Part shown: piece by piece, positions 35,789-39,175 of the stretch
Position numbering within the stretch: the stretch's first letter is position 1
Layout: each line of letters begins with the position of its first letter
Assembly (NCBI GenBank): GCA_048538215.1
Contig: JBLYPV010000001.1
Span: 547,526-611,525, forward strand
Direction: 5' to 3'
Source of the DNA: Patescibacteria group bacterium
GTDB lineage: Bacteria; Patescibacteriota; Minisyncoccia; Phycocordibacterales; GCA-2747955
Length of the DNA: 64,000 nt
Translations under genes and position numbers: made by a program
The notes under the pieces: model-generated
Told to the model about the DNA's origin: nothing
Database searches by the model: none
The model's input: the letters and a program-made list of their open reading frames with translations, nothing else

Positions 35789-35853
35789 ATATGTGGGGCC
35801 GTCACCGATAGGTGACGGCCCCCATTTTGATATTTAATTTAATCTGTACATCT

Positions 35854-36552
35854 ATGACTAAAAAAATACTTATAAAATTATCTGGTGAAGCTCTCGCGAA
35901 TGGCGGATCGAATTATCGTGAAGATGTACTTGCAGATATTACTACTCAGGTATCTCATCTTATGGAGGCAGGCCACCAGGTAGCGCTGGTGCCTGGTGGA
36001 GGTAATCTTTTTCGGGGTAAGGAATTGATAGAGCGGGTCAATGTGAAGCGACCTACTGCGGATTATATTGGGATGCTTGCTATTGTGCAAAATTCACTGG
36101 TATTGCGAGACTATTTTGAGTCTCATGGTACCCAAGCACGTGTGTGTTCGGCTATCACGATGCAACGAGTGTGTGAGCCCTATATCCCACTGAGAGTAGA
36201 GCGACATCTTGAAAAAGGCAGGGTGGTCATTCTTTCTGCTGGTACGGGAAATCCCTATGTTTCATCAGATACGACTTCGGTAATGCGTGCTTTGGAGCTG
36301 GGCTTTGATAGGGTAGTAATGGCAAAAAATGGTATTGATGGAGTGTATACAGCTGATCCTAAAATTGATCCAACTGCAACTAAAATTAAACGCATCACTG
36401 CCTCGGAAATACTTGAAAAACAGCTTGGCTTTGCTGATGCAGCGGCGGTATCACTTGCTTTGGAAAACAATCTACCTCTGCAAGTAATTTCAATGAATGA
36501 CATTGATAAGCTGGAGCAGGAAGACATCGGCACGATGGTCATTCCTGAATAA
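35854..36552 (+). CDS. pyrH: UMP kinase
   Basis: ILIKLSGEAL...GGGNLFRG; start moved to ATG 35854 (track ORF begins upstream inside the clpP terminator). Confidence 0.85.
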   Translation: MTKKILIKLSGEALANGGSNYREDVLADITTQVSHLMEAGHQVALVPGGGNLFRGKELIERVNVKRPTADYIGMLAIVQNSLVLRDYFESHGTQARVCSAITMQRVCEPYIPLRVERHLEKGRVVILSAGTGNPYVSSDTTSVMRALELGFDRVVMAKNGIDGVYTADPKIDPTATKIKRITASEILEKQLGFADAAAVSLALENNLPLQVISMNDIDKLEQEDIGTMVIPE

Positions 36553-36602
36553 TAAAGCAAGCTCTATTTTGCTAGATCTGGAGAAAAATTATAAGACTAG
36601 AT

Positions 36603-36630
36603 TTGACTCTGTAAAATATATCATTATAAT
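36603..36630 (+). promoter_or_regulatory. strong sigma70-like promoter TTGACT-16-TATAAT
   Basis: ttgactctgtaaaatatatcattataat. Confidence 0.5.
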
Positions 36631-36637
36631 ACCATCT

Positions 36638-37087
36638 TGAGTGAGCAGTGGAGAAGAGGGAGAGGAATTTTGCGAAATAACAAGGCAGTAGAGGTTTTAA
36701 TTTTCGTGCACCGTGATATGCCATTTCGCGGTGAGAAACTCAAGTGCGTGCAGAGAGCTCTCAAACACAATAGGGCTCTCAAAATTTCTGTACAAGAGGG
36801 GAAGGCAAAACGACCAGGAGAAAAAAGGCAGTATAGCCGTTGCCTCCGGATCAAAATCCCCCGAAGGAGATTCGAGAAAGCCCGAGAAGACGGACAATTG
36901 TCCCAATTCTTGGAGCATCGAATCTTCCGCAGAGATTTTCTACAGTGTGTCTTTCCCCTTGAAATAAAATCCTTCAAGGAGCAGATGCAAGTAAAGAACC
37001 CCCGCCAGAAATGGCGTAGGGCGGCCTAGGCAATTCGCGAGGGCAATTCAAACAAGAACAAGAGGGGCGGTAAGACTGCCCTTTTTC
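36638..37087 (+). ncRNA. candidate ~450-nt non-coding RNA (or very basic small protein) bounded by promoter and hairpin terminator
   Basis: Only overlapping ORFs on both strands, none with an RBS or conserved-looking sequence; terminator gggcggtaagactgccc+TTTTT at 37065-37086. Confidence 0.3.
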
Positions 37088-37121
37088 ATATGCTAAATAT
37101 TAGCTTATTAAATAAACAAAT

Positions 37122-38018
37122 TTAAGTATTGCCGTGATATTTACTGTGCACCTCTTTGAGAAATTTATCTGAAAGCTTGGTGTATACCTGGGTGGTATTG
37201 ATACTAGCGTGCCCTAGGAGCATCTGTACCGAGCGAATATCAGCACCATTGTGGAGCAGGTCGGTAGCAAAATAGTGGCGTAGATCATGTGGAGTCACCC
37301 TGCGCATAATCCCTGCTTCTCGTGCGCGCTTGTTGAGAATCCGCTGGACGGCTCGTGGGTAGATAGCACTTCCTGTTTTCATCACAAAAAGTGCAGGCGA
37401 GAGAATAGGGAGATCTGCTTGGTGTCGAAGATCCAGATAGGCGCGCGTGGCTCTGCGGGCAGCTTGGGAGATAAACACGAGGCGTAATTTCTCGCCTTTT
37501 CCACGGATGGTTAGCTCATCGCGAGACAAATCGATGTCTTCTTTGAGGCTACAAAGCTCGGACACGCGAAGCCCTGTGGAGTAAAGGAATTCGAGAATTG
37601 CTTTGTCGCGAATGTCTTCAAGATCGCTACCGCTTGGGGCGCTCATCAGGCGATTAAATTCATCACGGGTGATTACATCAAGCTCTCGCTGGGCTGTTTG
37701 GGCGAGCTCGATTTTGCTAGCTTCGAGCGTGCTTATATCCCGCTTGGCAAGGTATTTTAAAAAAGAGCGAAGGGCGATGAGGTATTTGTTTTGTGTGGTT
37801 TTTTTCATTGTTCCTTCACGAGTAGGGCTTCTATTGAGCGCGATGCGAAAGGATCGGACAGATTCGGCGGTGATATCTTGAACGCGAGTGATCTGTGCGT
37901 ATTCAAAATACGCTTTGATGTAGCGTTCGTACATAGTAATAGTATGCACACTGCGCCCCTTTTCAATTTCGAGGTACTCAAGGAATTCACCAAGGTAGTG
38001 AGTAGTATTCTGCGACAT
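37122..38018 (-). CDS. xerC: XerC/XerD-family tyrosine recombinase
   Basis: C-terminal HDLRHYFATDLLHNGADIRSVQMLLGHASINTTQVYT (R..HxxR..Y); start set at MSQNTTHYL. Confidence 0.8.
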   Translation of the reverse strand: MSQNTTHYLGEFLEYLEIEKGRSVHTITMYERYIKAYFEYAQITRVQDITAESVRSFRIALNRSPTREGTMKKTTQNKYLIALRSFLKYLAKRDISTLEASKIELAQTAQRELDVITRDEFNRLMSAPSGSDLEDIRDKAILEFLYSTGLRVSELCSLKEDIDLSRDELTIRGKGEKLRLVFISQAARRATRAYLDLRHQADLPILSPALFVMKTGSAIYPRAVQRILNKRAREAGIMRRVTPHDLRHYFATDLLHNGADIRSVQMLLGHASINTTQVYTKLSDKFLKEVHSKYHGNT

Positions 38019-38494: not shown

Positions 38495-38560
38495 AGCTAC
38501 CTCCTCCCCTGGGGGTTGTTTTGGTTTATCTTTTGTGAATTATCCTTTATACTAAGCTAT

Positions 38561-39175
38561 ATGACAGCCATTAAGCACCACGAGCAACGAGTAGGGGTAT
38601 TTATTGATACTCAAAATTTATATCATTCGGCAAAAAATCTATACGGAAAGCGTATCAATTTTGGAGCAGTCTTGGAAACGGCGGTAGCTAATCGACAGCT
38701 GATTCGGGCACTTGCTTATGTCATCACTACCGAATCAGGCGAAGAGAGCGAATTTTTTGAAGCACTGGGCAAATTGGGAATCGAGACAAAATCTAAAGAT
38801 TTGCAAATTTTTTTAGGAGGGGCAAAAAAGGCGGATTGGGATGTGGGCTTGGCAATTGATGCGGTGCGGGCTGCCCCCAAGCTTGATACGGTAGTGATCG
38901 TGTCTGGTGATGGTGATTTTGTCCCCTTAGTGGAATACTTGCAACACAATCAGGGCTGTCAGGTAGAAGTGATTTCTTTTGCCAAATCATCTTCCGCTCG
39001 GCTTATTGAACGAGCTGATGATTTTATTGATCTGGGGGCAGAGCCACGCACCTACCTACTTGGCTCGAAGCGTAAAAAAGATACAAATACCTCGACTAAA
39101 AAAGGTAAAGAAAGCTCACGAGTAGCTATTAAAAAACAAAGCCCACGCGGTGGAGCTACGATAAGTAAAGCGTAG
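38561..39175 (+). CDS. NYN-domain (LabA-like PIN-related) protein
   Basis: VGVFIDTQNLY...VIVSGDGDFVPLVEYLQ pattern; basic tail. Confidence 0.6.
   Translation: MTAIKHHEQRVGVFIDTQNLYHSAKNLYGKRINFGAVLETAVANRQLIRALAYVITTESGEESEFFEALGKLGIETKSKDLQIFLGGAKKADWDVGLAIDAVRAAPKLDTVVIVSGDGDFVPLVEYLQHNQGCQVEVISFAKSSSARLIERADDFIDLGAEPRTYLLGSKRKKDTNTSTKKGKESSRVAIKKQSPRGGATISKA

Follow-up and report, generated by a model that had tools for sequence, protein, structure and literature searches.

What is encoded in the roughly 450 nt that separate pyrH from xerC in this patescibacterial genome, a structured RNA or a small protein? Working in the window, by which we mean the whole 64,000-nucleotide stretch of DNA that was analyzed, a sequence-only reading had described an orphan transcription unit at this position, delimited by a strong promoter and an intrinsic terminator and enclosing no credible open reading frame. 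It had proposed a novel structured noncoding RNA or, alternatively, a small nucleic-acid-binding protein. The placement of the unit was confirmed when the flanking genes were identified: pyrH lies upstream (AA_kinase, E=1e-31), and the gene on the other side, convergent with the unit, encodes a recombinase of the XerC type (Phage_integrase, E=6e-43). The relatives of PyrH and XerC place the organism among the Patescibacteria (CPR), near Paceibacterota/Parcubacteria MAGs, and the XerC of the window shares 100% identity with P0001, a protein from a patescibacterial MAG. For comparison, loci were collected, in part via XerC homologues, and the surrounding DNA was read; these loci are given here as L numbers and the homologous proteins as P numbers.

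The signals that bound the unit were both found as described. The sigma-70-type promoter lies on the + strand at 36603-36630, with the -35 element TTGACT at 36603-36608, a 16-nt spacer, and the -10 element TATAAT at 36625-36630, and it gave 11 of 12 consensus matches in the promoter scan. A TTGAC[TA]-16-TATAAT sequence was present 28-54 nt before the start codon of the small gene at all eight loci examined (the window, L094, L095, L002, L088, L085, L086, and L087), and the promoter is therefore no chance match. Transcription is predicted to start at about 36637, which leaves a 5' UTR of about 33 nt (36637-36669, + strand) that includes the string TGAGTGAG and the Shine-Dalgarno region. The former is common to the L094 UTR, and a fold z-score of +0.96 indicated that the leader is unstructured. 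At the far end of the unit, an intrinsic terminator occupies 37060-37086 on the + strand, where AAGAGGGGCGGU and ACUGCCCUUUUU form a 12-bp stem with a GC core (dG -15.4 kcal/mol) closed by the loop AAG and followed by U5 at 37082-37086. A simple terminator scan gave no entry for this hairpin, which was detected in a separate folding test; its z-score against dinucleotide shuffles was -3.98, and none of 200 shuffles folded equally well. An equivalent hairpin and T-run followed the small gene in L002, L088, L095, L085, L086, and L087. Because promoter and terminator are both kept across the small-gene loci, we consider the independent transcription unit to be real and conserved. The terminator lies 36 nt past the stop of the convergent xerC, at 37122, and may serve both this gene and the small gene.

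The DNA around these signals showed some further features. A promoter-like site on the minus strand (TTTACA-16-TATAAT, 36588-36615, 11/12) overlaps the + strand promoter and is directed back into pyrH at its 3' end; the site may have arisen by chance in AT-rich, partly palindromic DNA or may be an antisense or divergent promoter. In L085 (3907-3966, - strand) and L086 (3373-3440, - strand), a 3' UTR of about 60 nt with its terminator, running from GGCGAGGCACGAGCAGAGCTGAAAAAGGCGAGCTCTCGTG to TCGCCTTTTTTGTTTAT, was nearly the same, while the CDS just 5' of it specified proteins that shared only 49% identity. This 3' UTR allows two alternative pairings, in which AGCUCUCGUG pairs with CACGAG..AGCU or the terminator stem forms, and it may be under constraint through also terminating the convergent xerC.

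Within the unit, the 130-codon open reading frame at 36637-37029, which had not been thought credible, holds an internal TTG at 36670, from which a CDS (36670-37029, + strand) extends over 119 codons to a TAG stop. The sequence-only reading had also held that the frames of the region were without ribosome-binding sites. This proved incorrect for the internal start: the in-frame TTG is preceded by a purine-rich Shine-Dalgarno sequence, GAGGGAGAGG (36656-36665), in which GGGAG/GAGG at 36658-36665 stands 4-7 nt 5' of the start codon. The related loci were organized in the same way, with a perfect AGGAGG, then 5 nt, then TTG in L094, GGGGAG 7 nt before TTG in L095, and AAGGGAG 6 nt before TTG in L088. 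TTG starts the small gene in all five of the basic-type loci (position 36670 in the window, 1237 in L094, about 4751 in L095, about 5968 in L002, and 4303 on the - strand in L088), each time with a Shine-Dalgarno sequence 4-7 nt 5' of it. The acidic counterparts that occupy the same slot elsewhere start with ATG or GTG. The predicted product, MRNNKAVEVLIFVHRD...IPRRRFEKAREDGQLSQFLEHRIF...KWRRAA, has 119 residues, of which 33 are K or R and 12 are D or E, and a pI of 11.2. Its frame ends in R-R-A-A-TAG at 37018-37029, where no "...AA-stop" frame had been recognized before; these codons specify the C-terminus of a protein and not a tmRNA tag.

We then searched for homologues of the product by exhaustive phmmer (HMMER) against 1.84 billion representative proteins. 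Full-length similarity was found to P0122 (54% identity over residues 3-119, E=4e-29), followed by P0123 (46%, E=8e-14), P0124 (42%, E=2e-9), and P0125 (38%, E=1.5e-5); a fifth match, to a TPR protein, was spurious. Only the exhaustive HMMER search recovered the family. Homologues are so few that a word-indexed protein search returned no match for the 130-aa ORF; for the L085 ORF it returned the query itself alone. The small protein had no match in Pfam, NCBIfam, PADLOC, or PHROGs searches, and at the DNA level nhmmer matched the region to none of 80 pyrH loci. Demonstrable homology of the basic, window-type protein is limited to the window, P0122-P0125, and P0127, and the family comprises five 90%-identity clusters besides the window protein, with no Pfam or NCBIfam model. 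All six members are strongly basic, with pI values of 10.1-11.2. The invariant columns of alignment A5 are I63, P64, R65, R66, F68, A71, G75, R84, and R88, and the best-conserved motif of the family is I-P-R-R-R-F at residues 63-68, encoded at 36856-36873 (+ strand). Its invariant core is I-P-R-R-x-F: four of five members have R at position 67, where P0125 has A. The motif is the start of a longer conserved stretch, IPRRrFxxAxxxG....hR, located where strand beta-3 meets helix alpha-2. On these comparisons, the small protein is a member of a tiny, unnamed, fast-evolving family that is so far seen only in a subclade of Patescibacteria/Paceibacterota.

If the gene encodes a protein, the pattern of change between orthologues should follow its codons, and this is what we observed. 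Among 119 aligned codons of the window and L094, 27 were identical, 37 carried synonymous changes, and 55 changed the amino acid, and the differences were distributed 49/31/76 over the three codon positions (pN 0.35; pS 0.76, which is saturated). Three-nucleotide periodicity and synonymous substitution among orthologues were exactly the observations that the sequence-only reading had named as pointing away from an RNA. Within the conserved motif, the arginines of IPRRRF are encoded by cga agg aga in the window and by cgc cgt cgc in L094, and the synonymous changes between the two genes include Arg AGG/CGT switches. Only selection acting on the protein is expected to produce such switching of arginine codons in a conserved motif. 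Moreover, + frame 0 was the sole frame open in the window, L094, and L095, where it carries the terminal stop only, and each of the other frames was interrupted by 1-8 stops in one or more of these sequences. A 117-aa ORF on the antisense strand (36624-36977) was rejected as a shadow frame, with 2 stops in L094 and 8 in L095; periodicity alone does not discriminate against it because the wobble register is common to both frames. The slot counterparts L085 and L086 gave a dN/dS of about 0.14. Together, these data show that the unit is, by its sequence, transcription-competent and codes for a protein under purifying selection. We conclude, with a probability of about 0.92, that the region holds a monocistronic gene for a protein, apparently missed by annotation.

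How this gene came to look noncoding can be traced to a TTG start, an atypical composition, richness in Arg and Lys, and a small number of homologues. When a codon-position Markov model was trained on the genes of the window, the CDS frame scored -4.1, which lies under all 123 real 360-nt gene chunks (minimum -1.45) and over 99.3% of 615 non-coding frames. As the score falls below that of every real gene chunk, the composition of the gene is atypical for the genome. The exact protein, tried in four start variants, had no entry in a collection of 15 billion proteins, but the neighboring XerC from the same MAG does occur there, and thus we infer that the small gene is unannotated in the source record.

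Both the low coding score and the absence of the gene from the protein collection would also fit a novel structured ncRNA of about 450 nt, extending from promoter to terminator with accidental ORFs. In addition, the + strand folded better than its shuffles, with MFE z-scores of -4.7 for 36637-37090 and -5.9 for the CDS, compared with -2.6 for the - strand. The low z carries no weight, however, because 2 of 22 equal-length coding segments of the window scored lower still (mean of the controls -1.0, sd 2.5) and the orthologues were unremarkable (-1.9 in L094 and +0.1 in L095). An Rfam scan, which had been suggested as a check, was run with Rfam 15 (including RNase P RNA, tmRNA, 6S, SRP, OLE, ROOL, and GOLLD) and left the region without a match at gathering score; even at E<=10, no family was matched beyond noise, the best hits being to unrelated sRNAs and snoRNAs at 11-19 bits against thresholds of 40-110. 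An RNA also fails to account for conservation at the amino-acid level with replacement of synonymous codons, for protein homologues reaching E=4e-29, for the single open frame in all orthologues, or for a confident AlphaFold2 model (see below). We regard this reading as largely refuted and very improbable.

A circularly permuted (two-piece) tmRNA was considered as well, with the -AA-stop frames near the terminator serving as the tag frame. Suggestive of it were the endings ...RRAA-stop in the window and ...RQAAA-stop in L002, both shortly 5' of the terminator, and the presence of T-loop-like UCGAAUC strings that were read by eye. Against these, ARAGORN, with permuted forms included, found no tmRNA and, elsewhere in the window, just two tRNAs, and no Rfam tmRNA family appeared at E<=10. 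No acceptor stem or T-arm was conserved between the window and L002, and the supposed tag closes a 119-codon frame that has a Shine-Dalgarno sequence, a TTG start, and full-length protein homologues, on account of which we dropped this candidate as having a very small probability.

Having settled on a protein-coding gene, we used AlphaFold2 to predict the structure of its product. From the single sequence, the model was already a compact fold (pLDDT 66.7, pTM 0.59), and with a 5-sequence alignment the values rose to a pLDDT of 82.1 and a pTM of 0.70. The predicted order is beta1 (residues 6-13), alpha1 (20-32), beta2 (40-47), beta3 (55-64), helices at 65-87, beta4 (91-94), and a C-terminal helix, and the last seven residues (113-119) are predicted to be disordered, with pLDDT below 50. 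The model thus shows a beta-alpha-beta-beta core of the ferredoxin-like type, after which come short helices and a disordered tail. Its neighbors in fold space were generic ferredoxin-like proteins (PII/GlnK, ACT, dimeric alpha+beta barrel, bS6, uS10, and the RRM-like Cas6/Csy4), none of them outstanding (Foldseek E >= 0.01, TM <= 0.48, identity 3-18%). Unlike these families, the small protein has additional C-terminal helices, and its IPRRRF motif has no counterpart there.

Two likenesses to known proteins deserve mention. The N-terminal PRRPFEKxRLDxELK of uS4 (40S S9 in its eukaryotic/archaeal form) resembles the kiPRRrFekAredGrleqll.hR of the small protein over about 47 residues, and both segments are basic. 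The match is not significant, with a best E of 0.09 and a range of 0.09-6 for the profile against PDB sequences, and the many uS4 rows amount to a single observation because they all come from one family. Moreover, the small protein lacks the remainder of uS4 and has no match to Pfam Ribosomal_S4. We therefore treat the resemblance in sequence as a lead and not as evidence. The other likeness is one that we presume on general grounds, to Cas2/VapD-type ferredoxin-fold nucleases, and the fold searches give it no backing. These nucleases and the small protein are alike in length (90-130 aa) and in the order beta1-alpha1-beta2-beta3-alpha2-beta4, and several members of the family have an acidic residue after beta1 (FVHRD, FVHTD) as in the Cas2/VapD type. 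However, Pfam, NCBIfam, and PADLOC gave no Cas2/VapD match for the small protein, and no CRISPR array or cas genes were noticed beside the small gene.

To place the gene in its evolutionary setting, we compared the slot between pyrH and xerC among the loci. The order clpP-pyrH-[small gene]-xerC(convergent)-rpsO was found in L085, L086, L087, L088, and L002, in each of which the slot gene has 112-130 codons and no Pfam match. Both homologues whose contigs were read occupy the slot downstream of pyrH: P0122 lies directly 3' of pyrH in L094, with TTGACT-16-TATAAT, AGGAGG, and a TTG start, and P0123 lies in L095 in the order clpP-pyrH-(400 aa)-P0123-dctP-xerC. The slot is taken by a DNA_alkylation gene in L089 and contains no gene in L090-L093, and a metagenome scan with XerC yielded four loci, of which the close ones, L081 and L082, had no unit beside xerC. 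Where the slot is filled, its protein evolves far faster than its neighbors, because PyrH identities of 91-94% go with small-protein identities of 26-54%: 91% versus 54% for the window and L094, 93% versus 49% for L085 and L086, and 94% versus 26% for L002 and L088. The slot proteins are basic in the window, L094, and L095 and acidic (pI about 5) in L085-L087, and a relation between the window family and the acidic proteins was not demonstrable (hhalign E=0.29). L002 and L088 gave a weak N-terminal signal with the window family (hhalign E=0.0017, probability 15%; HMM 3-6 bits), and a search of these two loci for frameshifted IPRRRF remnants found none. Either a single family has diverged beyond recognition in this slot or small promoter-plus-terminator cassettes have been replaced there.

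Other genes in this neighborhood also drew our attention. In one subclade, a gene of 384-400 aa lies between pyrH and the small gene (L002 4709-5911; L088 4360-5514, - strand; L095 3495-4697); no Pfam match was recorded for it in L088 and L095. It is only 66-67% identical among genomes in which PyrH is 92-94% identical, and this part of the slot is therefore also fast-evolving. Between clpP and pyrH in the window, a 12-bp GC-rich hairpin, GGGGCCGTCACC GATA GGTGACGGCCCC (35795-35822), overlaps the first codon of the longest pyrH ORF, a GTG at 35812. Translation of pyrH probably begins instead with the ATG at 35857 (MTKKILIKLSGE), in agreement with the N-termini of orthologues. Beyond xerC, right after rpsO, the window has an NYN-domain gene (PF01936, a predicted RNase; 38516-39175), and every related locus (L085-L093) keeps its equivalent in that place; next come a gene of about 330 aa that matches nothing in Pfam and then rpsF and ssb. 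The NYN gene and the ~330-aa gene are a conserved, uncharacterized, translation-linked pair in the clade.

What might the small protein do? The "small protein" part of the alternative kept by the sequence-only reading is borne out by homologues, codons, reading frames, and the AlphaFold2 model; the nucleic-acid-binding part is less secure and is suggested by charge and fold. We tentatively propose that the product is an accessory nucleic-acid binder, most likely of RNA, with reference to its charge, its RRM/ferredoxin-like scaffold, and its invariant basic motif, and we would still give this somewhat less than even odds. Binding would take place at the basic face that the invariant I-P-R-R-x-F...A...G....hR segment makes up, and the protein would be a dispensable accessory factor and not a core component; the patchy occupancy of the slot speaks against an essential or core ribosomal function. 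A different function is conceivable for a gene in such a place, namely that of an accessory or conflict factor that does not bind nucleic acid, in a slot that would then be a hot spot of turnover. Candidates include a toxin/immunity-type protein, a factor in host or phage interaction, and a protein that assists the neighboring tyrosine recombinase or sets its directionality. Fast evolution relative to the neighboring PyrH, variable slot content (basic, acidic, DNA_alkylation, or empty), and the direct adjacency of the small gene to a tyrosine recombinase gene are all consistent with this idea. On the other hand, the partner gene needed for a toxin-antitoxin pair is absent, PADLOC and PHROGs gave no match, and dN/dS is well under 1. 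Furthermore, the pairing of xerC with rpsO is conserved at every locus, including those that lack the small gene, which makes dependence of the recombinase on the small protein unlikely. On balance, we find an accessory or conflict role somewhat unlikely.

Read as a protein-coding gene, the unit is expressed from the near-consensus sigma-70 promoter as an mRNA of about 450 nt with a 33-nt unstructured leader carrying the Shine-Dalgarno sequence. Translation runs from the conserved TTG at 36670 to 37029, with the intrinsic terminator next. Two features may hold the amount of protein down. The conserved, weak TTG may limit expression from the near-consensus promoter, and the C-terminus may act as a signal for proteolysis. 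A terminal Ala was present in five of five members (-RRAA, -RRVA, -SEAA, -SLAA, and -ARAA), and four of these end in Ala-Ala. The small proteins of L002 (-QAAA) and L086 (-NQAA) likewise have -AA ends. The -AA-COOH end is the key determinant of the ssrA degron recognized by ClpX, and clpP lies two genes upstream of the small gene. The Ala-ending C-terminus of the family thus resembles the ssrA tag and the -LAA-type signal of natural ClpX substrates. Unlike the ssrA tag, which is added co-translationally, the -AA of the small protein is a genome-encoded end with no tmRNA features. By analogy, the disordered -AA tail may be a built-in ClpXP degron, and TTG start and tail together suggest low, proteolytically controlled abundance; in the mechanism that we envisage, the conserved start codon and the ssrA-like ClpXP signal would keep the protein level low. 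The fullest version of this proposal, a lineage-specific RNA-binding protein of CPR bacteria that is possibly ribosome-associated, presents a uS4-like PRRxFEKxR..D..L on a ferredoxin-like scaffold, has its abundance set by the weak TTG start and a Clp-read -AA degron, and is encoded in a pyrH-xerC slot that is a hot spot in which small promoter-plus-terminator cassettes diverge or turn over much faster than the core genes around them, seems quite unlikely as a whole.

The finding matters mostly as a correction: what resembled an RNA gene in a reduced CPR genome is a small protein gene, of a kind that a TTG start, atypical composition, and sparse homologues make easy to miss, both by annotation and by eye. 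The one tiny, uncharacterized family that it adds combines a fold predicted with confidence and a basic motif that is sharply conserved. Small, basic, lineage-specific proteins of this sort may include factors that associate with RNA or ribosomes in Patescibacteria, and the protein described here is so far a candidate for such a role.
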